Shown: one piece after another, positions 3,416 to 50,719 of the stretch | How positions within the stretch are numbered: the first letter of the stretch is position 1 | Layout: every line of letters begins with the position of its first letter | Source: Lachnospiraceae bacterium | GTDB lineage: Bacteria > Bacillota > Clostridia > Lachnospirales > Lachnospiraceae | DNA length: 64,000 nt | Assembly (NCBI GenBank): GCA_045578645.1 | Contig: JAZNKQ010000067.1 | Coordinates: 8,295-72,294, forward strand | Direction: 5' to 3' | Notes under the pieces: generated by a model | What the model was told of the DNA's origin: nothing | Seen by the model: only the letters and a program-made list of their open reading frames with translations | The model's database searches: none | Program-made: the position numbers and the translations under genes

Positions 3416-4291
3416 TTAGTACTTCTGCGCCGGAGCATAGAATTCAAAAATGACAGCATCGTTTTTCTCTTCAAGACGCTTAATATTATCACCCGGTCTT
3501 ACGGTCCAGACAAATTTCATGGCACCCATTGACTCGCAGAGCTTTACGGTAAAGCACTTTCCTTCCTTGTGGTAGGACGTAAAATGGGGTCTGGCGATTA
3601 CATTGGTAAGCAGGTGGGATAAAGCAAAGGCTACGGGACCAGAAAGTACTCCCTTGAAATCCGATGAGGGAGCGGACAGCTGGCCGCGGAGTATGTCGGG
3701 AGCGTTTTTCTTAAACCAGCCTACAATAAAGGGGCTGAAGCTTTCTATACAGTAAAGTCCCTTGTAGCTGCGCAGAAGCTCAAGTGTCTTTTGGCACAGA
3801 AGCGGGTTTTTCGGACCGTTTTTAAGCTCTACAAGGAGGGGAACTCTTCCGTCGACAGCTGCAAGAACCTCTGTGAAAAGAGGAATCTGTTCTTCCGTAC
3901 CGCAGAGGCGGAATTCCTTAAGCTCGTCATAGGTATAAAAATCTACCCTGTTGTCGATCCCGCAGACTCTGTTGAGAGTATCATCGTGGAAGACAACAAT
4001 CTGCTCGTCCTTTGTCAGCTGTAAATCAAGCTCAATTCCGTAACCGGCCTCAGTTGCGGCACGGAATGCGGCAAGAGAATTTTCGGGAATTTTCTTATCG
4101 GGGCTGTGGAGTCCGCGATGAGCAAGATTAAGATGATGAAACTTCCTGCGAAGCTCGTCGGCACCACGTCCGGGAGCAATAAGGAACAGTGTAATAAGGA
4201 ACAATACAAGAGCGATAAACAGCAGTACCGCTATAACTGAAATAATACTCGAGACCACGCCGGACCCGGGAAAAGAAAATAGGAAATTCAT
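3416..4291 (-). CDS. membrane-anchored glycerophosphodiester phosphodiesterase (GDPD family)
   Basis: Contains HRGLHSPDKKIPENSLAAFRAATEAGYGIELDLQLTKDEQIVVFHDDTLNRV, the GDPD catalytic signature, plus an N-terminal TM helix. The start at MNFLF is chosen because GGAG lies 6 nt upstream. Confidence 0.85.
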   Translation of the reverse strand: MNFLFSFPGSGVVSSIISVIAVLLFIALVLFLITLFLIAPGRGADELRRKFHHLNLAHRGLHSPDKKIPENSLAAFRAATEAGYGIELDLQLTKDEQIVVFHDDTLNRVCGIDNRVDFYTYDELKEFRLCGTEEQIPLFTEVLAAVDGRVPLLVELKNGPKNPLLCQKTLELLRSYKGLYCIESFSPFIVGWFKKNAPDILRGQLSAPSSDFKGVLSGPVAFALSHLLTNVIARPHFTSYHKEGKCFTVKLCESMGAMKFVWTVRPGDNIKRLEEKNDAVIFEFYAPAQKY

Positions 4292-4303
4292 ACTATGCTC
4301 CAT

Positions 4304-4402
4304 TTCTGAGCGACCTGTCGCGAGGAATATCATAATGGCTATTTGCTTTCGCTCAGAAACAAATAGCCGTGTGAAAAAGCATATTTATATGATTTTTCGC
4401 AC
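4304..4402 (-). repeat. conserved ~100-nt structured leader element, copy A (in the 5' UTR of the GDPD gene)
   Basis: The reverse complement aligns with copies at 45034-45130 and 48605-48700. The 35-mer GGCTATTTGTTTCTGAGCGAAAGCAAATAGCCATT is identical to copy B. Hairpin 1 has 2 mismatches here. Confidence 0.85.
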
Positions 4403-4441
4403 TATGCCTCCGATTTTAATCACTGCCATACGGCAGAAGAA

Positions 4442-10852: not shown

Positions 10853-11727
10853 AGAAGGCGAGAAATTATAAAACAAAATTTCAATATCCGGATGCGATTA
10901 TCCTTATCATTCTTATAATTGCGGCATTATTAATTGTTTTACCGTTCATGAATGTTATTGCGATATCCCTGACGACACAGAAGGCATATGCAGATACACC
11001 GCTTTTGCTTATACCAAAGGTGTTTACGCTTGAGAATTACGAAACACTTTTTGATGACGGACGTATTCTGATCGGCTTCAGAACCTCGACAAAAATACTG
11101 CTGATGGCAATGCCGATAAATATGTTCCTTACAACAACGGTTGCCTACGGACTTTCGAGAAAAAACTATCCCGGAAGAACCATAATATTAAAGCTGGTAG
11201 TATTCACAATGCTTTTCAGCGGCGGTATCGTACCGCTTTACCTTACCGTAAAATCCTATGGGCTTATCGGTTCCTTATGGGCAGTTGCGTTATGTCAGGG
11301 AATAAATACCTTCTATATGATAATAATGCTTAATTTCTTCCAGTCGCTTCCCGAGTCACTGATAGAATCGGCGAAGCTTGACGGTGCGGGCGAGATGAAG
11401 ATTTTGTGGAAGATTATGCTGCCGCTTTCAAAGCCGGTATTGGCAACAATATTCCTTTACTACTTTGTTGACCGTTGGAATGAGTGGTACATTTCCATGC
11501 TGATGGTGCGTGATACAAAAAATACGCCGCTGCAGCTGGTATTAAGAAATATAGTTCTTGAGTCGCAGAATCTTGACAATATCGTAACCGAGTCGGTTGA
11601 GCTTTTTACCTTCAGCTCCGGAATCAAGATGGGTGCTGTAGTAGTTACGGTTATTCCTGTTATGTGTATATATCCCTTCCTGCAGAAGTATTTTGCAAAG
11701 GGAATTATGCTCGGTGCGGTAAAGTAA
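10849..11727 (+). CDS. carbohydrate ABC transporter permease (LplC/YteP-like)
   Basis: EAA loop (ESAKLDGAGEMKILWKIMLP). Its start overlaps the upstream stop by 4 nt. Confidence 0.85.
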   Translation: MKKARNYKTKFQYPDAIILIILIIAALLIVLPFMNVIAISLTTQKAYADTPLLLIPKVFTLENYETLFDDGRILIGFRTSTKILLMAMPINMFLTTTVAYGLSRKNYPGRTIILKLVVFTMLFSGGIVPLYLTVKSYGLIGSLWAVALCQGINTFYMIIMLNFFQSLPESLIESAKLDGAGEMKILWKIMLPLSKPVLATIFLYYFVDRWNEWYISMLMVRDTKNTPLQLVLRNIVLESQNLDNIVTESVELFTFSSGIKMGAVVVTVIPVMCIYPFLQKYFAKGIMLGAVK

Positions 11728-11809
11728 CTGCATCAGGCGGGATTGTTTGTTTTGGTAATGGTATCTGAAAGGATATTATTATATAATGTATACTAAATAA
11801 GGAGGGTTT

Positions 11810-13522
11810 ATGAAAAAACATCGTTTCAGTATTTTAACGGCAATACTTTTAATCGCTATGATGCTGGTGATGGCAGCCTGCAGTAAGTCAGAGGAAACAC
11901 CTGATAAGGGTACATCTTCAACCTCAAAGACTGAGTCTTCGGGAAGCGCGTCATCTTCAGGCGAAAAAGCAGATTCAGGCAGCGCTTCGGGGAATGAGGC
12001 TCCTACAGATGTTGCAGGGGATAGCGCAGAGAAGGATTACAGTGAGCATTATACCTATAGTTATGCAAGTATTCAGATAACTGAGTCTACAGACTATAAC
12101 TCTAAGGATGATGCAATGACAAGATATTGGCAGGATAAGTATAACTTTGACTGGGATATCGTTTCTATATCATCGGATAACTGGGATTCTACAGTAAACA
12201 CATGGGTTTACGCAGAGGATTTACCGGATGTTACAATCTTTGATTATAAGCATGCACAGATGATGGACTGGATTGATCAGGAGCTTATTTTCAAATTCCC
12301 TGAGGGCTGGGAAGAGCGTTGGCCTAATGTATACCAGAGCCAGGTTTGCGCGGGAATCGGAAATACCGTAAGTGAAATGGTTGACGGTACATATTTCCTT
12401 GCAAGACCTAACTATGCAGAGAATAAGCCTACATCACCCGAAATCTGCCCTACCAACATGATGGTTTATATCCGTAAGGACTGGGCACAGGCAGTAGGAT
12501 TTGAGCTTAAGGATTACTATACTGTTGATGAGATTATTGAATACGGACGTCTTATTAAGGAAAAGGACCCCGGCAATGTGGGCTCCGCACTCGTTCCTTT
12601 AGGATTAAAGTCTGATAATGCATATAATCTTTTCGTAAGAAACAGCAGTACATATACAGCTGCGGATTACTATTTCTATCGTGATGATGCCGGTGAGTTC
12701 CGTTGGGGACTTGCAGATGAGGATACACTTGAAGGTCTTGAGCTTTGGAGAAAGGCATATGACCTCGGAATCCTTAATAAGGAGTTCTATACCTATTCAG
12801 GTTCAGAGGACGTAGAAGATTTCTATGTTCGCGGTGTTTCGGGTCTTATGTGGTATCAGGGCGGCGCACGTTACCAGATGAACGTAAGTAACTACATGAG
12901 AGACAATCTCGGATTAGAGTATGAGGATACAGTATGGCAGTGCTTCGTTATAGCTAATGACGGACAGTATCACTGGGCACCTGCAGGAAACTACTGGGGC
13001 GTTATAATGTTTAATCCCGATATTGAAATCGAGAAGTGGGAGCGTTACATGGATATGCTCGAGGAATCAGCAAGTACTCAGGGTCAGATTCTTATAAGAA
13101 TGGGCTTTGAAGGCGTTGATTGGGAATATCAGAACGGCGAGATGGTATCTCTTCTTGAAGAAGGAAAGGATGCAAGAAGTAAGTATCCGTCAATTTATCC
13201 CGTATATCATCAGCTTCTCGTTCTGAGTGATGACTTTGTTCTTATTAATCCTAACTATCCTAAGGAGTTCCGTGATCTTACCGTTAAGATGTATAAGCTT
13301 AAGGAAGAACTCGGAAAGAACGGAACATGTCCCGCTATAGACTATGATATTTATCTTTACAGCTCAGAGTCGACAAGTGCTCTTAACTTTGAATTTGCAA
13401 CCGATTTTGCAAATATCGTTGTAAACGAGGGCTCGGTTGAGGATGGCTGGAGAGAATGGGTTGACAGCTGTGCATATCTTGTAGACCCCGTATTAGAGGA
13501 GTTTGCAGAGAATATTAAATAA
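11810..13522 (+). CDS. extracellular solute-binding lipoprotein (LplA-like, large family-1 SBP)
   Basis: Lipobox LVMAAC followed by a Ser-rich linker. It is 570 aa and lies downstream of the two permeases. Confidence 0.8.
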   Translation: MKKHRFSILTAILLIAMMLVMAACSKSEETPDKGTSSTSKTESSGSASSSGEKADSGSASGNEAPTDVAGDSAEKDYSEHYTYSYASIQITESTDYNSKDDAMTRYWQDKYNFDWDIVSISSDNWDSTVNTWVYAEDLPDVTIFDYKHAQMMDWIDQELIFKFPEGWEERWPNVYQSQVCAGIGNTVSEMVDGTYFLARPNYAENKPTSPEICPTNMMVYIRKDWAQAVGFELKDYYTVDEIIEYGRLIKEKDPGNVGSALVPLGLKSDNAYNLFVRNSSTYTAADYYFYRDDAGEFRWGLADEDTLEGLELWRKAYDLGILNKEFYTYSGSEDVEDFYVRGVSGLMWYQGGARYQMNVSNYMRDNLGLEYEDTVWQCFVIANDGQYHWAPAGNYWGVIMFNPDIEIEKWERYMDMLEESASTQGQILIRMGFEGVDWEYQNGEMVSLLEEGKDARSKYPSIYPVYHQLLVLSDDFVLINPNYPKEFRDLTVKMYKLKEELGKNGTCPAIDYDIYLYSSESTSALNFEFATDFANIVVNEGSVEDGWREWVDSCAYLVDPVLEEFAENIK

Positions 13523-40155: not shown

Positions 40156-40219
40156 GGGTAAATAACCCCATAATACTACGGGGTAACCCCATAATAATAC
40201 GGGGTAACCCGATAATACC
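40156..40219 (+). repeat. three tandem ~21-nt units in the rplK-rplA spacer, each containing a GGGGTAACCCC mini-hairpin
   Basis: GGGTAAATAACCCCATAATACTAC / GGGGTAACCCCATAATAATAC / GGGGTAACCCGATAATACC, directly upstream of the rplA SD. Confidence 0.7.
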
Positions 40220-40235
40220 ACTGGGAGGTTGAATC

Positions 40236-40931
40236 ATGAAAAGAGGAAAGAAATATATTGAGGTTGCAAAGCTTGTTGACCGTACAGTACAGTATGATGT
40301 TAACGAGGCATGCAGTTTAGTTAAGAAGACATCTATCGCTAAGTTTGATGAGACAATTGAAGCTCATTTCAGACTCGGAGTTGACGGACGTCACGCTGAT
40401 CAGCAGGTTCGTGGTGCGGTTGTATTACCTCACGGAACCGGTAAGACAGTAAGAGTACTTGTTTTTGCTAAGGGCGACAAGGTTGCTGAGGCAGAGGCAG
40501 CAGGTGCTGATTACGTTGGTGGCGATGAGCTCATTCCCAAGATTCAGAACGAAGGCTGGTTTGAGTTTGACGTAGTTGTTGCTACACCTGATATGATGGG
40601 TGTTGTTGGTCGTTTAGGACGTGTTCTCGGACCTAAGGGTCTCATGCCTAACCCTAAGGCAGGTACCGTTACTATGGACGTTACCAAGGCTGTTAAGGAT
40701 ATTAAGGCAGGTAAGATTGAGTACAGACTTGACAAGACAAACATTATCCACTGCCCTGTTGGAAAGGCTTCTTTCTCAGAGGAGCAGCTTGCTGATAACC
40801 TCAACACACTTATCAGTGCATTAATCAAGGCTAAGCCCGCAGCTGCAAAGGGAACATATGTTAAGAGTGCTACAATTGCTTCTTCAATGGGCCCCGGAAT
40901 CAAGCTTAACGCTTCAAAGTTTAATGCATAA
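40236..40931 (+). CDS. rplA: 50S ribosomal protein L1
   Basis: Full-length L1 homologue in the conserved position. Confidence 0.95.
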
Positions 40932-42116: not shown

Positions 42117-42468
42117 GTATAGCGGGAACGGGCTTTCTGCACGAAGCATTTATTATACACTTTGAGACATGAGCGTAATTAATTATACACTTTCGCGTAT
42201 TTTGTCGAATAACATCATATGGCAATCCGATTGTAATGGGAAATTGAGGAATTTTCCGGCAGGCGGGTTGCCATTTTTTGCGTTATTGTATAAAAAATAG
42301 GCTTTAAAACCTATACACTGCGAATTTTGACGATTTTTGAAGAAAATGATAGATTATCGAGTGTATAAAGTGTATAGTTTTCTTTGGGTATACAGTAGTA
42401 ATATATCGCCGGCATACGGAATAGGTATATCGTAGGTATACGAAGATAGAGAAAAGGAGAGGGGTCCT

Positions 42469-45021
42469 ATGAAATCGAACAAAGAAAAAGTATATGACTT
42501 TATAAAGCTTCATGATAATGAGGAGCGTGGCGGCGGAGTTTCAACCTCGTATATAGCGGATGCACTGGAGCTCCAGCGAACAAATGTGAGTAGTGCGCTG
42601 AATCTGCTCGTTTCGGAGGGGAGAATTCAAAAGAGGAACGGAAGACCGGTTCTTTATGGGATTATTCATGCTGAAAATGCAGAAGGCAATGACTGCTTTT
42701 CTGATCTTACGGGGCATGACGGCAGCTTAAAGCGCGCGATACAGCTTGCGAAGGCGGCTGTGTTATATCCCGAAAAAGCGCTTAATTCGATGCTGGTAGG
42801 TGCGCGGGGAACGGGAAAAAGCCGTATGGCGAAGCGAATGTATCAGTTTGCGGTTGAGCAGGCTGTACTTCCTCAAAATTCGCCGTTTATCCGGGTTGAT
42901 TGTCACGATTATCGTTCGAAGGAGCATCTTGCGGAGGAGCTTGCAGAAATTTGGAAGAAGGCATCCAATGGGGTGGTTTTTCTTGATAATATACAGTTTC
43001 TCAGCAGCCGTGCACGAAAAGAGGTACTTGAATATGTGCGTTCGAAGGAGCGTAATTATGCATTGATTGTGAGCTGTACGGACCGTGGCTGTCTGCCGGA
43101 TGAGTTTCTTGCGGAGTTTCCGATACAGATTGAGCTTCCGGCTCTTTCGCAGCGACCGGTCAGCGAACGGTTTGAGATGGTAAAGAAGCTGCTGCAAAAG
43201 GAAGCGGCACGAATTGGGAGGACTCTTATTATTCGCAGTGAACTGATGCGGTGCCTGCTGCTTTATGAATGCGAAGCCAATTATTATCAGCTGAAGGGTG
43301 ATATAAAAATCGGCTGCGCCAACGCCTATGTAAGGGAGTATAAAAACAAAGAGGATATAAGGCTGTTTGCGGGTGATTTTGCAAATCCGGTAAGGAAGGG
43401 CTTTTTAAGGTATCACTTGTACAGGAGAGAAATCGACGAGCTGATTTCTTCGGACCAAAGCTACATTTTTGACGGTAAGACCGTCAGTGTAAGTGCGTCC
43501 GATAAGAACAGTCTGTATGACAAATTGAATAAGAAGGCTGCGACGCTTAACGAGACCGGATTTGAGGAGGATGAAATAGGTCTGATTCTGAGTGCGGAGG
43601 TTGAGCGGTCGTTTGGAGAATATCAGAAGGATCTGCTGCGTGATGTGGGGGATAAGAGTCAGCTTGAGGCGCTGGCAGACGCAAAGCTGATTCAATTGGT
43701 TGAACAGTTTTTGAAGGATGCGGAAGCGCATCTTGACAGGAAGCTGTCGGACTCTGTTTTTTACGGTCTGTGTCTTCATCTGAATGCGGTAATAGCCGGA
43801 AGGAGAGAGCCGGAGCAGCCTGATAAGAGCCGGATAGCAGATATTCTCGGAAACCATAAAAGGGAATATCTGCTGAGTGCGGAATTTGCAGAGAGGCTTG
43901 CGAAGGAATATGATATAGAGCTTGCAATGGGTGAGATAATCCTGATTACTATGTTTCTCTGCTTTGAAAATGAGGAGCTGCCGCAGAGCGGAAAGCCGGT
44001 TATTCTGTATGCGCTTTACGGAGAAGGAATTGCGACGGCTATAGTTAAGGCTATTACGGGAATGACAAAATGGGATAATGTATTTCCGTACGAGCTGACC
44101 GGCGATAAAAATTCTGTTGAAACCTATGAGGCGCTGAAGGAGTACATTGCGGGGATAAACAGAGGAAAAGGGGTTCTGGTTGTATACGACAGCGGCTCCC
44201 TGCCTGAAATGCTGTCGGAGATTGAGGAGGAGCTTGACATTCCTATAAGACAGATTCCGATGCCTGTTACGACAATCGGAATTGAGCTTGCACGCAGAAC
44301 CATGACTGAGGATAACGCTGATATGGTATTGCGCAGTGCGATAAAGAATGTCGGAGCAGTCGGCGCATTCAGGAATAATTATATCGTAACGCTTTGCACG
44401 ACGGGCAAGGGAAGTGCGGAGGAGCTTAAGCGGTATATTGAAAGGAACGGACAGCTTAAGGATACGGAAGTTATCGCAATGTCGTATAGCGAAAGAGATG
44501 TGCTTTCGCAGGAATTCAGAAAGCTTATGCGGAACGGTATTATTAACTGTGTTGTGGGAACCTTTGACCCGCAGCTGTTTTCAATACCCTTTATTTCAAT
44601 CAGCGAGGTTTTCAGCGTCAGAAAGGACGGACTTCCAAAGCTTCTTTGTCTGGAGAAGGAAGCAAAGTCGCGAATTGATTACAATGCAATGTTTGATTAT
44701 CTGGGAGAGCAGCTTTGTTATGTAAATACAGATAAATTGAGAAAGTTGCTGCCTGAGACGCTGAGAGTAATAAATTCGGAGATTTCCGAGCTGTCGCTGG
44801 ATACGGAAGCGGGACTGCTGATTCATATTTCCTGCTGCATTGACCGTCTTATTGCAAAGGAGCCTACGGCGACGAACCCGAGGAAGAAAATGATACTTTC
44901 AAAGTATGATAAGGAATTCAGGGAACTGCTCAGGATTTTCAGACCGATTGAAAAAACATTTCATATCATTATAAATGACGATGAGATTGCCAATATACTT
45001 ATGATTATATATCAACTGTAG
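42469..45021 (+). CDS. LevR-like PRD-domain transcriptional regulator (wHTH, degenerate AAA+/sigma-54-interaction domain, PRD, EIIA-Man-like, EIIB-Gat-like, PRD)
   Basis: Walker A GARGTGKS, PRD-like segments (LCLHLNAV, LLIHISCCIDRL) and an EIIB-like LCTTGKGSAEEL. It lies directly upstream of the PTS operon. Confidence 0.8.
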   Translation: MKSNKEKVYDFIKLHDNEERGGGVSTSYIADALELQRTNVSSALNLLVSEGRIQKRNGRPVLYGIIHAENAEGNDCFSDLTGHDGSLKRAIQLAKAAVLYPEKALNSMLVGARGTGKSRMAKRMYQFAVEQAVLPQNSPFIRVDCHDYRSKEHLAEELAEIWKKASNGVVFLDNIQFLSSRARKEVLEYVRSKERNYALIVSCTDRGCLPDEFLAEFPIQIELPALSQRPVSERFEMVKKLLQKEAARIGRTLIIRSELMRCLLLYECEANYYQLKGDIKIGCANAYVREYKNKEDIRLFAGDFANPVRKGFLRYHLYRREIDELISSDQSYIFDGKTVSVSASDKNSLYDKLNKKAATLNETGFEEDEIGLILSAEVERSFGEYQKDLLRDVGDKSQLEALADAKLIQLVEQFLKDAEAHLDRKLSDSVFYGLCLHLNAVIAGRREPEQPDKSRIADILGNHKREYLLSAEFAERLAKEYDIELAMGEIILITMFLCFENEELPQSGKPVILYALYGEGIATAIVKAITGMTKWDNVFPYELTGDKNSVETYEALKEYIAGINRGKGVLVVYDSGSLPEMLSEIEEELDIPIRQIPMPVTTIGIELARRTMTEDNADMVLRSAIKNVGAVGAFRNNYIVTLCTTGKGSAEELKRYIERNGQLKDTEVIAMSYSERDVLSQEFRKLMRNGIINCVVGTFDPQLFSIPFISISEVFSVRKDGLPKLLCLEKEAKSRIDYNAMFDYLGEQLCYVNTDKLRKLLPETLRVINSEISELSLDTEAGLLIHISCCIDRLIAKEPTATNPRKKMILSKYDKEFRELLRIFRPIEKTFHIIINDDEIANILMIIYQL

Positions 45022-45033
45022 AATGGGAGGATA

Positions 45034-45130
45034 GTGTGAAAAATCATATATTAGATTTTTCACACGGCTATTTGTTTCTGAGCGAAAGCAAATAGCCATT
45101 GCGATATTCTTCGCGACAGGTCGCTTGGAG
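45034..45130 (+). repeat. conserved ~100-nt structured leader element, copy B (upstream of the PTS IIA gene)
   Basis: GTGTGAAAAATC-N8-GATTTTTCACAC (perfect 12-bp inverted repeat), GGCTATTTG-N14-CAAATAGCC, and a conserved 3' segment ending at the SD. Confidence 0.9.
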
Positions 45131-45142
45131 ATGGAGGATAAA

Positions 45143-45466
45143 ATGACTGACGAATTAATGGAGAAGCTTGAAGAAATTTCAATGATGATTATAGCGAATT
45201 CAGGGGCAGCGCGTTCAAACGCATTTGCTGCACTGGCAGAGGCAAAGCAGGGCAGATTCGAGGCTGCCGACGAGCTTTTAAAGGCTGCGGAGGAGAGTCT
45301 GCAGACAGCACATGAATCTCATAGAGAGCTGCTTAAGCTTGATGCAACCGGCGAAATTGAGAAGGTAAGTATTTTGCTTTGTCATGCGCAGGACCATCTG
45401 ATGGGCAGCGCTCTTGCAGGAGACCTGATAAAGGAAATGATATTGCTTTACAGGGATAAGAAATAA
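45143..45466 (+). CDS. PTS lactose/cellobiose-family EIIA
   Basis: 107 aa with the helical-bundle EIIA-Lac pattern (IIANSGAARS...HAQDHLM). GGAGG lies 5 nt upstream. Confidence 0.9.
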   Translation: MTDELMEKLEEISMMIIANSGAARSNAFAALAEAKQGRFEAADELLKAAEESLQTAHESHRELLKLDATGEIEKVSILLCHAQDHLMGSALAGDLIKEMILLYRDKK

Positions 45467-45482
45467 AACGAAGGGGGGTAGC

Positions 45483-45785
45483 ATGATGGACAGAAAAGTA
45501 TTGTTGATATGCGCAGGGGGTATGTCAACGGGAATTCTCATGAAGAAGATGGAGAAATACGCGGTTGAGCAGGGCTTTAATCTTCAGATTGAAGCTATCG
45601 GAATGTCGTCTTATGAGGAAGTCTGTAAAAACTATGATGTCATCTTACTCGGACCGCAGGTGTCCTATAAGAAGGCTGAAATAGAAGAGGTTACACAGAT
45701 GCCGATTGCCGTGATTGCGGCATATGATTATGCGGTGGGAAATGTAGCCAATATTATGAAACAGGTAGAAGAGCTCTATAAGTAA
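45483..45785 (+). CDS. PTS lactose/cellobiose-family EIIB
   Basis: Active-site Cys context KVLLICAGGMSTG. Confidence 0.9.
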   Translation: MMDRKVLLICAGGMSTGILMKKMEKYAVEQGFNLQIEAIGMSSYEEVCKNYDVILLGPQVSYKKAEIEEVTQMPIAVIAAYDYAVGNVANIMKQVEELYK

Positions 45786-45807
45786 TGTATTTTGAAAGGG
45801 GATAATT

Positions 45808-48578
<2,771 letters not shown>

Positions 48579-48604
48579 AGTTAAATTCTTCAAAATGGAG
48601 ACTA

Positions 48605-48700
48605 GTGTGAAAAATCATATATTATGATTTTTCACACAGCTATTTGTTTCTGAGCGAAAACAAATAGCCATTGCGGTATTCCTTGCGACAAGTCGCTCAG
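48605..48700 (+). repeat. conserved ~100-nt structured leader element, copy C (between the GH1 gene and ptsH)
   Basis: It has the same two hairpins and 3' segment as copies A and B, with 2 substitutions in the 35-nt core. Confidence 0.9.
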
Positions 48701-48714
48701 AAATGAGGATTGGT

Positions 48715-48981
48715 ATGGTTAAGAGAGAGGTTGAAATAATAAATAAGACAGGCCTGCATGCGCGCCCCGCATCAGATTTTGTCCTTAATGCCAAGAAATT
48801 TGAAAGTAAGATAACGGTCTGTAAAGAGGGCGGGGAGCCGGTTAATGCAAAATCAATTGTAAGGCTTCTTGCAGAGGGTATCGGACAAGGGGATAAAATT
48901 GAGATTACCGCAGCCGGTGAGGATGAAGCGGAAGCCCTTGACTGTCTGGCGGCATTGGTAGAAAGCGGATTCGGTGAGTGA
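48715..48981 (+). CDS. ptsH: phosphocarrier protein HPr
   Basis: 88 aa, with GLHARPA (His15) and NAKSIV (Ser46). Confidence 0.9.
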   Translation: MVKREVEIINKTGLHARPASDFVLNAKKFESKITVCKEGGEPVNAKSIVRLLAEGIGQGDKIEITAAGEDEAEALDCLAALVESGFGE

Positions 48982-49006
48982 TAAAAACGGGGAGGAGGTG
49001 AGCGTT

Positions 49007-50719
49007 TTGAAAAGCAGCAGAACAGCTTTAACGGGAAGCCCTGTTTCACCGGGTATTGCCGTGGCGAAAGCATATCTTTATTATCCCTTGGAGCTTGCCG
49101 TTGCAGAGGGGTATTTTGCGGCAGGAGAAGAGGAGGCGAATCTGAAGCATTTTCATGACGCACTCCGTCTTGCGGGAGAAGAGCTGGAAGACCTGTACGA
49201 AATGCTTTGCAAAGAGGATGCCGTCAAGGCGAAAATCTTTGCGGCACACAAGGAGATTCTTGAGGACGAGGAGATAATAGAGGAAATCAGGATGGCGATT
49301 GAAGATGACAGGATGAATCCGGATTTTGCCATCGACAAGGTATTTACGGAATTTGCGGGAATGCTGTCAAGAGTCGCAGACCCGCTGATTGCCGGAAGGG
49401 CTGCGGATTTGCATGATGTTAAGAAGCGTCTCGTCCGTATTTATCAGGGGAAGAGTGAAAAGAATCTGTCGGGGCTTACGGAGGATGTTATTGTTATAGC
49501 ACATGATTTGCTTCCGAGTGACACGGCAACCATGGACAGGGAACATGTAAAGGGCATTGTAACCGAAACGGGGGGGTATAATTCGCATTCGGCAATCCTT
49601 GCAAGGAGCTTCGGGATTCCTGCGGTACTCGGTGTGGGTGCGGTTATGTCGGAGATTCCTGATTTGGCGCTGCTGGCGGTAGATGCACTGACGGGAGAGC
49701 TTACGGTTAATCCGTCGGAGGAGGAAATTGCCTGCTGTGAGCAGAAAAGGAAGGCATTTTTGGAGGAGAAGCGAAAAGAGGAGCAGTATCTTGATAAGCC
49801 GGCGGTTATGAAGGACGGTACAAAAATAGGGCTGGGGATTAATGTCGGCTCACCGGAATTTGATATACCCAAAACACGGTTTGATTTTGTCGGATTGTTC
49901 AGGACCGAGTTTCTGTATATGGAAAACAGCTCGCTTCCGGATGAGGATGAGCAGTTCGAGGCCTATAAAAAGGCTCTGATTAGTGCAAAGGGACATCCGG
50001 TGACCTTGCGTACGCTTGATATCGGAGGAGATAAGACCCTTCCGTATATGAAGCTGCCCGCAGAGGAGAATCCTTTTCTCGGTAAGCGTGCGCTGCGTCT
50101 TTGTCTGGCAGAAAGGGAGATGTTTATGACACAGCTTCGTGCCGCGTTAAGAGCATCTGCCTTCGGACCGCTTAAGCTGATGTTCCCGATGGTAGGCAGC
50201 ATAGAGGATATAATAAGTGCGAAGTGCTGTGTGGAGCTTGCAAAGGATGAGCTCTCAAGGGAAGGGATTCCCTTCGACCGTGATATTAAAATTGGAATAA
50301 TGATAGAGGTTCCATCCATAGCGCTGATTGCGGACCTGGCAGCAGCCGAGGTGGATTTTGCGAGCATAGGCTCGAATGATCTGACACAGTACATAAGTGC
50401 GGCGGATCGCATGAATCCTGAGGTGACACCCTATTATCAGAATTATTCTCCGGCAATGCTGCGTCTGCTCGGATTTGTTTTTGATGCCTTTAATGCATGC
50501 GGAAAGGAAATTTCCGTATGCGGTGAGATGGCAGGGAGCCCGCGTGCTGCGGTTGCACTTGTAGGACTCGGAGCTAAAAGGCTTAGTATGAGTGCGGCTA
50601 ATGTTGCGGGGGTAAAGGCTGCGCTGGCGGGTGTAAGTCTGAGTGATGCCGAAAGAATCGCATCAGAATGCAGATGCATGAAAACCGAAAAAGAGATTAA
50701 GGAATTTCTGGGGATATAA
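49007..50719 (+). CDS. ptsI: phosphoenolpyruvate-protein phosphotransferase (PTS enzyme I)
   Basis: GSPVSPGIAV..., GGYNSHSAILARS (phospho-His) and a PEP-utilizing C-terminal domain. The TTG start at 49007 lies 8 nt after GGAGGAGG; the in-frame GTG at 48974 is an alternative. Confidence 0.9.
   Translation: MKSSRTALTGSPVSPGIAVAKAYLYYPLELAVAEGYFAAGEEEANLKHFHDALRLAGEELEDLYEMLCKEDAVKAKIFAAHKEILEDEEIIEEIRMAIEDDRMNPDFAIDKVFTEFAGMLSRVADPLIAGRAADLHDVKKRLVRIYQGKSEKNLSGLTEDVIVIAHDLLPSDTATMDREHVKGIVTETGGYNSHSAILARSFGIPAVLGVGAVMSEIPDLALLAVDALTGELTVNPSEEEIACCEQKRKAFLEEKRKEEQYLDKPAVMKDGTKIGLGINVGSPEFDIPKTRFDFVGLFRTEFLYMENSSLPDEDEQFEAYKKALISAKGHPVTLRTLDIGGDKTLPYMKLPAEENPFLGKRALRLCLAEREMFMTQLRAALRASAFGPLKLMFPMVGSIEDIISAKCCVELAKDELSREGIPFDRDIKIGIMIEVPSIALIADLAAAEVDFASIGSNDLTQYISAADRMNPEVTPYYQNYSPAMLRLLGFVFDAFNACGKEISVCGEMAGSPRAAVALVGLGAKRLSMSAANVAGVKAALAGVSLSDAERIASECRCMKTEKEIKEFLGI

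Follow-up and report, generated by a model that had tools for sequence, protein, structure and literature searches.

In the window, that is, the whole stretch of 64,000 nucleotides of the Lachnospiraceae bacterium analysed here, an element of about 120 nt, copy C, lies between a glycoside hydrolase family 1 (GH1) gene and ptsH-ptsI, the genes for the HPr and enzyme I (EI) proteins of the phosphotransferase system (PTS). The initial annotation regarded it as a leader that places ptsHI under the same signal as the sugar-specific operon upstream. Our analysis leads to another interpretation: copy C is very probably one insertion, into an ancestral PTS module, of a lineage-restricted, multi-copy, gene-oriented repeat that carries a ribosome-binding site (RBS). 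Since about 150 unrelated genes carry the element and the relatives of the module are devoid of it, the idea of a signal shared with the sugar operon does not hold. The link between ptsHI and the sugar genes is an old, conserved seven-gene module, and the repeat is no part of that link.

Copy C is made up of the following parts, all on the plus strand.

48594..48714, plus strand: copy C of the interspersed repeat (138 bits against a profile of the three window copies)
48597..48610, plus strand: 5' junction of copy C, read from the sequence as a Shine-Dalgarno (SD)-like GGAG, a TAG and then GTG-TGA
48605-48619 / 48623-48637, plus strand: hairpin 1, a perfect 15-bp stem with a 3-nt loop
48639..48668, plus strand: hairpin 2, a 10-bp stem with the loop UCUGAGCGAA
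48650..48657, plus strand: 5' strand of a long-range pairing, CUGAGCGA, in the loop of hairpin 2, complementary to 48693-48700
48693..48700, plus strand: 3' strand of the long-range pairing, UCGCUCAG, ending 4 nt 5' of the SD
48705..48709, plus strand: SD of ptsH, GAGGA, part of the element's 3' end and located 5 nt upstream of the ATG at 48715

The GTG-TGA of the 5' junction is a start codon with an immediate stop, and its GTG is the first triplet of hairpin 1. This end of the element, with the motif GGRG-N2-3-TAGTGTGA, is kept in 156 copies, and its position matches that of the displaced native RBS in the purM and EIIA comparisons described below. The sequence of hairpin 1 (GTGTGAAAAATCA...TGATTTTTCACAC) is kept across genera. 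As the initial annotation had stated and the alignment of the copies confirms, hairpin 1 is perfect in copy C and hairpin 2 has lost one terminal pair by a G to A change: copies A and B have a G at the position of A 48638, and the outermost pair of hairpin 2 is lost with it. The ORF (open reading frame) ends and the extent of copy C also agree with the earlier observation that the 136-nt spacer between GH1 and ptsH (48579-48714) is filled almost wholly by the element, which supplies the SD of ptsH and adds two stable hairpins to a spacer of at most 56 nt in relatives. A conserved leader peptide was considered and rejected, as the small frame of the element is not the same in all copies, being GTG-TGA in copies B and C and 5 codons long in copy A.

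The repeat was searched for in the whole assembly, which comprises 2.55 Mb in 132 contigs and is 84% complete. Used as a BLAST query, copy C retrieved about 45 copies with 84-95% identity, and the profile of the three window copies gave 158 non-overlapping matches, of which 82 are full length; for the conserved 5' module TAGTGTGAAAAATCA the count is 156. The true copy number should be above this count, because 27 matches are situated no more than 300 nt from a contig end, where 4.9 would be expected, and 11 head-to-tail tandem junctions are found among the copies. The strand of the element is that of the downstream gene in 136 copies and the opposite one in 10 (about 93% agreement), and most copies (62 of 71) have a co-directional gene upstream. 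The 3' end is closely tied to translation starts: 64 of the 77 full copies end no more than 40 nt from an ORF start, and the distance from the anchor GTCGCTCAGAAAT to the start codon is exactly 10 nt in roughly three quarters of 44 copies. What lies downstream is diverse: the genes have no relation to one another and include those for a response regulator, a LysR regulator, Ham1, PurM, a BadF-type ATPase, a YggS-like protein, GH43, RNase III (rnc), GH5 and ClpB. Beyond the family represented by copy C, at least two further sub-families (on C51, C131, C32, C112, C126 and at C67:85534) share the 5' module and the 3' RBS end and differ in their middles: one has a third hairpin, CGAGAAATCAC...GTGAATTTCTCG, and another two mutually exclusive hairpins, GCGAATTTG.../CCTGCG...CGCAGG. 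Truncated copies are common, as are tandem ones. As a side observation, two tandem copies stand directly 5' of rnc (G000, C61:25720-25954, minus strand), a curious placement given that the long perfect hairpin of the element is a candidate substrate of RNase III.

The window itself holds two copies besides copy C.

4292..4410, minus strand: copy A, before the gene of a membrane glycerophosphodiester phosphodiesterase (3416-4291, minus strand)
45026..45142, plus strand: copy B, between the stop codon of the regulator gene and the start of EIIA

The three copies are 85% identical column by column, and comparable matches never occurred in shuffled sequence. The nearest kin of copy C are copies on C18, C52, C1 and C112 (95-96% identity), behind which lie genes such as a response regulator gene, rdgB and a LysR gene, and copy B comes only 17th of 46 in similarity to copy C. 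The nearest kin of copy B are found on C131, C12 and C108 and those of copy A on C42, C129 and C124 (96%). Because B and C belong to separate sub-lineages, they are best seen as independent insertions and not as a pair specific to this locus.

The module that received copies B and C consists of seven genes (42469-50719), all on the plus strand.

42469..45021, plus strand: LevR-like PRD/AAA+ regulator gene, first in the module (domain search)
45143-45466, plus strand: EIIA (PF02255), lactose/cellobiose PTS family
45483-45785, plus strand: EIIB (PF02302), lactose/cellobiose PTS family
45808-47097, plus strand: EIIC (PF02378), lactose/cellobiose PTS family
47097..48578, plus strand: GH1, 6-phospho-beta-glucosidase-type (PF00232, E = 4e-133)
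48715..48981, plus strand: ptsH, with an ATG start, encoding HPr of 88 aa (PF00381, E = 2.3e-29)
48974..50719, plus strand: ptsI, encoding EI, longest ORF, three phosphoenolpyruvate-utiliser domains

The true start of ptsI is probably a few codons 3' of that of the longest ORF. These domain assignments bear out the initial description of ptsH-ptsI as lying 3' of, and co-oriented with, EIIA-EIIB-EIIC-GH1. Within the species-level genome collection, the PtsI most similar to that of the window (73% identity) comes from a Lachnospiraceae metagenome-assembled genome, where it lies in a locus (L044) with the same seven genes in the same order. HPr homologues of 80-84% identity were found in the same module in an NCBI assembly (L124) and in four sequencing runs (L125-L128), and the order regulator-EIIA-EIIB-EIIC-GH1-ptsH-ptsI is kept in all these loci. 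Regulator orthologues of 850-861 aa occupy the equivalent position in L044, L125 and L126. The genes flanking the seven-gene block differ from locus to locus.

In none of these relatives (L044, L124 and L125-L128) is the element present at the GH1-ptsH or the regulator-EIIA junction. Their GH1-ptsH spacers measure 56 (L044), 8 (L124) and 45 nt (L125-L128), compared with 136 nt in the window, and the regulator-EIIA spacer has 13-17 nt in relatives, compared with 121 nt in the window. The genome that holds L044 was searched as well, and no copy was found anywhere in it. A comparison of the regions upstream of ptsH had been proposed at the outset, and the outcome named beforehand as refuting, that is, relatives with the same gene order and no element, is the one it returned. 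The same pattern is seen away from the PTS genes, since purM is devoid of the element in 13 genomes of the same genus. Other strains of the species were sought through exact matches to HPr (88 and 92 aa), EIIA and RdgB, and no further record was returned.

The junctions give some indication of how the repeat enters its sites. The EIIA junction reads TAG-AGGGAGGTTGAAG-ATG in L044 and TAG-AATGGGAGGATA-(GTGTGAAAAATC ... GCTTGGAGAT)-GGAGGATAAA-ATG in the window, where the string GGAGGATA flanks the insert on either side. For purM, two same-genus genomes have AGCTCAGAAAGGAGCAACA-ATG and this genome has AGCTCAGAAAGGGAGATTA-(108-nt body ending GCTCAGAAATGGAGATTATT)-ATG; the native RBS of the former, AGCTCAGAAAGGAG, corresponds to the left junction in the latter. 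From the EIIA and purM junctions it follows that the native SD stays at the 5' junction and that the element brings a new one. Among 45 related copies of this genome, similarity is greater between the two junctions of one copy, left and right, than between those of different copies (z ~6.9). The left flank on average resembles the 3' terminus of the element, whose two ends are 14-24-nt imperfect direct repeats containing the SD. Such junctions would fit either a duplication of the target RBS or an insertion guided by likeness to the RBS-like end of the element.

Known classes of mobile repeats were considered in turn. A miniature inverted-repeat transposable element was rejected because the ends are not inverted repeats of each other and a search for a longer parent copy found none. 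The repetitive extragenic palindromic sequences (REP) and their inverted doublets (REPIN), which go with the transposase RAYT, were rejected because no PF01797 match was found in the 84%-complete assembly and because the copies are single or in head-to-tail tandem and do not form inverted doublets. An autonomous parent, with the 5' and 3' parts placed around an ORF, yielded one pair only, 2.3 kb apart and unconvincing. Three copies with identical flanks in G172 turned out to belong to a repeat of about 300 bp with no transposase, and candidate excision footprints, CTCAGAAA(N)GGRG, number 1-3 per element-free relative, which is the background level.

Several lines of evidence suggest that the element is structured at the RNA level. 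A folding energy of -42.1 kcal/mol (z = -3.8) was computed for the sense strand of copy C. Stable folding is likewise obtained for the antisense strand, which is to be expected of palindromes. Compensatory exchanges are seen in both hairpins among 47 copies of the genome, for example from AAAAATCAT/ATGATTTTT to AAAAAGTGC/GCACTTTTT and from GGCTAT/ATAGCC to GGCAAT/ATTGCC, those of hairpin 2 being G-C to A-U and U-A to A-U. In the same 47 copies the sense strand has 41 G-U pairs against 15 A-C pairs, a count that is suggestive only, the copies being related. The strongest evidence comes from the loop of hairpin 2, which is complementary to a segment that ends 1-4 nt 5' of the SD; the sequences vary and the pairing is kept, as in the following variants.

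Family I (copy C type, this genome): loop CUGAGCGA, 3' segment UCGCUCAG
Family II (this genome): loop CCGAAGCGU, 3' segment ACGCUUCGG
G019: loop CGCGAG, 3' segment CUCGCG
G022: loop UGCCGAGC, 3' segment GCUCGGCA
G058: loop CCGGAGCGU, 3' segment ACGCUCCGG
G172, first pair: loop CCGCAGACGC, 3' segment GCGUCUGCGG
G172, second pair: loop GUCGGAGC, 3' segment GCUCCGAC
G172, third pair: loop CGAGAACGC, 3' segment GCGUUCUCG

The loop-3' pairing covaries over at least eight sequence variants from six genomes. In a curated table of loops and 3' segments, an automated harvest being too noisy, complementary runs extend over 6-11 bp within an element (mean 8.75) and over 4.1 bp on average between variants. 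In an alignment of 14 sequences from six genomes, 96.7% of the cells of the pseudoknot helix are paired, and 6 of its 9 pairs have changes in both partners. The whole structure has 13 such pairs in this alignment, compared with 4.2 +/- 1.5 in shuffles (0 of 500 reaching this number) and 1-5 in slid controls; the structure used has the top three pairs of the middle hairpin mis-registered, and its helix 5 should be disregarded. No variant, from the window region or from 12 related loci, has a match in Rfam 15 at E <= 1; given this and the unrelated downstream genes, a riboswitch or gene-specific cis-regulatory leader was rejected.

The distribution of the repeat is patchy. Among 24 genomes searched in the genus of the window, two have matches to copy C: G019, with many copies, some of them in tandem, and G022, with one. 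Across 300 genera of the family, the 5' module occurs in at least 10 copies in about 10 genomes, the reversed control pattern giving mostly 0-2 matches and at most 4. The element of other genera also ends at an ATG that opens a reading frame, and three of these frames, judged by their first residues, resemble housekeeping genes. Over 34 nt, hairpin 2 of family I is matched exactly in 49 human-gut metagenome contigs (L174-L222), all of which represent one orthologous locus of another gut species. Of these contigs, 30 have an altered 5' arm of hairpin 1, 1 has a different hairpin instead of it, and 9 lack the middle hairpin. These changes between strains indicate that neither the 5' arm of hairpin 1 nor the middle hairpin is indispensable at this locus.

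The evidence above may be assembled into the following scenario. The repeat sits between the original SD of a gene and its start codon, its 3' end providing a replacement SD at a fixed distance. The ancestral seven-gene module would later have received two independent insertions, B before EIIA and C before ptsH. Copy C would most likely be transcribed within a long module mRNA starting at a conserved promoter upstream of the regulator gene; on this RNA, hairpins 1 and 2 would fold, the loop of hairpin 2 would pair with 8-11 nt ending just 5' of the SD, and ptsH would be translated from the SD of the element. It is possible that the translation of ptsH is uncoupled from that of GH1 in this way. 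The fold may also alter the stability or processing of the mRNA segment, or insulate the RBS from its upstream context, and in that sense the element may be an RNA-level module in one long transcript from the regulator gene to ptsI. There is no sugar-specific information in the element, and the signal it conveys, if any, would be common to about 7% of the genes of the genome.

Two promoter-like sites are relevant to the transcription of ptsHI.

42327..42355, plus strand: sigma-A-type promoter-like site upstream of the regulator gene, TTGACG-17-TAGATT (consensus scan)
48541..48569, plus strand: candidate weak internal promoter at the 3' end of GH1, TAGAAA-17-TATAAT (consensus match only)

The hexamers of the former and motifs of the GTATAC type are conserved in the window, L044, L125 and L124, which makes this region the likely control region of the module and the likely start of the long transcript. 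The repeated GTATAC/GTATAT-type motifs (TATACACT, GTGTATAAAGTGTATAG, GGTATACAGTA and AGGTATATCGTAGGTATACG) lie at 42290-42468, around and after the regulator promoter, and mark a likely binding region for the regulator of the module. As regards the second site, the junction comparison shows that GH1 runs in the window 4 codons beyond the stop position of relatives: these end in GTG-TAA and the window has GTG-TAT-AAT-ACA-AAA-TAA (48560-48578), so that a TATAAT box was created where relatives have their stop codon, 9 nt upstream of the new one. This match could give ptsHI a start of its own.

Several other explanations of copy C have to be weighed against an insertion of the repeat. The closest to the original proposal is a PTS-specific control module, be it an operator, an antiterminator target or a processing site, that places ptsHI under a sugar-dependent signal. 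The presence of two copies inside one PTS cluster and the adjacent gene of a PRD-containing regulator would speak for it, but the other copies stand before unrelated genes, B and C are of different sub-lineages, and relatives with the same gene order have neither. Matches to a sigma-54-type promoter are at chance level (TGGCAC-N5-TTGCW for the -24/-12 elements, 57 in the window and 57.4 expected), with none in copy B or C, and a sigma-54/LevR-type promoter or upstream activating sequence between regulator and EIIA is unsupported because relatives leave only 13-17 nt for it. We regard a PTS-specific module as next to impossible. It may be mentioned separately that a sigma-54-like -24/-12 site with two mismatches, TGGCAATCCGATTGTA, is found at 42220-42235, about 250 nt 5' of the regulator gene; such matches occur at chance. 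Alternatively, hairpin 1 could be a leaky intrinsic terminator or attenuator that lowers the read-through from GH1 into ptsHI. A lenient scan does flag 48605-48637, along with 45034-45065, and to this extent the earlier statement that no terminator separates GH1 from ptsH needs qualification. That statement otherwise stands: the stem is rich in A-U pairs (only 4 of its 15 pairs are G-C), and the sequence that follows it, AGCUAUUUGU, is no run of U but belongs to hairpin 2, of which it forms the 5' arm. Furthermore, a U-rich tail is not kept in the other sub-families, and the same hairpin is found directly 5' of many genes with no promoter in between, e.g. purM and clpB. Hairpin 1 is unlikely to be an efficient terminator, and a leaky one seems very improbable. 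An internal promoter with its operator, the palindrome of hairpin 1 being a DNA operator over a promoter with TGGAGA as -35 and the TATATT of the loop as -10, is to our mind improbable too. The consensus scan does give TGGAGA-16-TATATT and TGGAGA-18-TATTAT at 48596-48625, both of which agree with the consensus at 9 of 12 positions, and the REP2 and Borrelia IR repeats discussed below carry promoters. Yet the -10-like loop is not kept in other sub-families, which have ACTGATGTG, ACCGATGTG or CATATACGCAA instead, and in this A+T-rich region the 31 sites of the scan are only modestly above the 19.7 +/- 4.5 expected by chance. Judging by the G-U pairs and the compensatory changes, selection acts on one strand only, and if transcription started inside hairpin 1, the covarying structure downstream of it would have no explanation as a feature of DNA.

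A further alternative is that the element is a global cis-regulatory RNA, a kind of mobile regulon in which a trans-acting protein, RNA or small molecule reads hairpin 1 or the pseudoknot and co-regulates the genes that bear the element. The pairing of loop and 3' segment beside the SD, maintained by compensatory change across genera, and the conservation of the hairpin 1 sequence in about 10 genera are in favour of such a function, and there is a precedent in the reported co-regulation of 14 genes linked to REP2 (Delihas 2011, PMC3184786). Nevertheless, the genes concerned have no common function, their orthologues in relatives are without the element, at one locus the 5' arm of hairpin 1 is altered (30 of 49) or the middle hairpin deleted (9 of 49), and tandem and truncated copies are common; on balance, a regulon of this kind is a rather unlikely explanation. 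A related and likewise doubtful idea is that of a self-propagating translation-initiation cassette, which would home to SD-start junctions by the resemblance of its RBS-like end, CTCAGAAATGGRGATTAGT-ATG, to native ribosome-binding sites, and cross genera of gut Lachnospiraceae while a trans-factor reads hairpin 1 and the pseudoknot. If it were true, each insertion would add one more gene to a mobile post-transcriptional regulon, as would be the case here for the PTS genes and ptsHI.

The insertion of an RBS-carrying repeat accounts best for these observations, and several points weigh against it. The relatives that serve as empty sites are distant (PtsI 73% identity, HPr 82-84%). Both the junction statistic and the comparison of G-U with A-C pairs overstate the independence of the copies, which are akin within one genome, and the gene calls of the census are a crude set of longest ORFs. 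As to a mechanism of mobility, a comparison of the element ends found no terminal inverted repeats, and no match to the Y1 transposase (PF01797) was found in the 84%-complete assembly. Finally, the covariation and the conservation of hairpin 1 across genera could reflect a shared function at the scale of the genome. If such a function of the element-bearing genes is real, the "same signal" idea would be partly rehabilitated at that scale.

The element is a real structured, RBS-carrying repeat, with no Rfam match and of a kind known only from rare analogues; literature searches for the sequence and for Lachnospiraceae repeats of this kind found no description. Its closest analogues are REP2 (CREN) of Neisseria and the IR-A/IR-B repeats of Borrelia plasmids, of 120-180 bp and of unexplained origin and spread (Delihas 2011, PMC3184786). 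Like the element, these are located immediately 5' of genes, are oriented with them, carry an RBS and abut or include the ATG; they lack terminal inverted repeats and form two internal stem-loops towards the 5' end. REP2 is said to hold a promoter; the promoter matches seen here are weak (9 of 12 positions) and not kept between sub-families. The present element differs from REP2 in that most copies lie inside runs of co-directional genes, in a copy number about six times higher (~150 vs 26), in its occurrence in several genera of a Gram-positive family, and in its covarying long-range pairing beside the SD, its modular sub-families and its tandem arrays. The likeness is thus one of kind and not of family: the element is set beside REP2 by description, and no sequence similarity is claimed.

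Other repeats resemble it less closely. According to the summary of Supply et al. (1997) in PMC3184786, the mycobacterial interspersed repetitive units (MIRUs) are described as G+C-rich repeats of 40-100 bp, with small ORFs that overlap their neighbours and tetranucleotide direct repeats. The element shares with them the character of short intergenic repeats within operons, often in tandem and with ends touching the flanking genes, as well as the absence from homologous sites in related species. MIRUs are transcribed in polycistronic mRNA, as the element would be, but they are distinguished from it by its lack of a conserved ORF, its SD at a fixed distance and its pseudoknot-type pairing. The BOX elements of Streptococcus pneumoniae are modular, form hairpins, are co-transcribed and can change downstream expression (Croucher et al. 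2011, PMC3049150). Conserved end modules with a variable middle are common to both; BOX elements, however, are found in either orientation, with an excess between convergent genes, and are no regular source of an RBS, whereas at least 90% of the copies studied here are gene-oriented and they end at start codons. REP/REPIN sequences likewise have a short conserved motif followed by a palindrome, a high copy number and an intergenic location. Unlike them, the element is 5' and not 3' of genes, does not form inverted doublets and has a much longer and more structured unit.

These results remove an attractive but wrong regulatory story for ptsHI. They also have consequences beyond this locus: one structured element supplies the RBS of about 7% of the genes of a gut bacterium and recurs in several genera of Lachnospiraceae, and it may set the translation or mRNA stability of many core genes. 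It can mislead searches for riboswitches and leader peptides and it breaks assemblies, 23 contig ends bearing a copy here. It is a natural "portable RBS", any effect of which could be measured directly.

The association of ptsHI with the sugar genes has to be explained independently of the repeat. Their placement had been called unusual, which is correct when set against textbooks, but it is explained by a conserved, self-contained module that holds the only EI and EII found in the genome. The assembly has one EI and one PF02378 EIIC, both in the module, and no mannose-type EIIC, EIIA_1 or EIIA_2 was found in it, at 84% completeness. In the genus of the window, EI is present in only 3 of 27 other species, at 34-37% identity. 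HPr and EI appear to serve only this transporter and, since there is a single EI and a single type of EII, they are to be seen as parts of a self-contained cassette instead of general proteins. The seven-gene block is probably a transferable, self-sufficient PTS cassette. A second HPr-like gene (C131:8542-8799, G000) lies about 3 kb from an HPr kinase gene (11722-12228); the two probably form a regulatory HPr(Ser-P) pair, apart from the HPr of the module.

Another repetitive feature of the window lies in a ribosomal-protein region, where 40163-40225 consists of three head-to-tail copies of a 21-nt unit, TAACCCCATAATACTACGGGG. Each unit can form a CCCC/GGGG hairpin, and the array is located just 5' of an ORF that starts at 40236.

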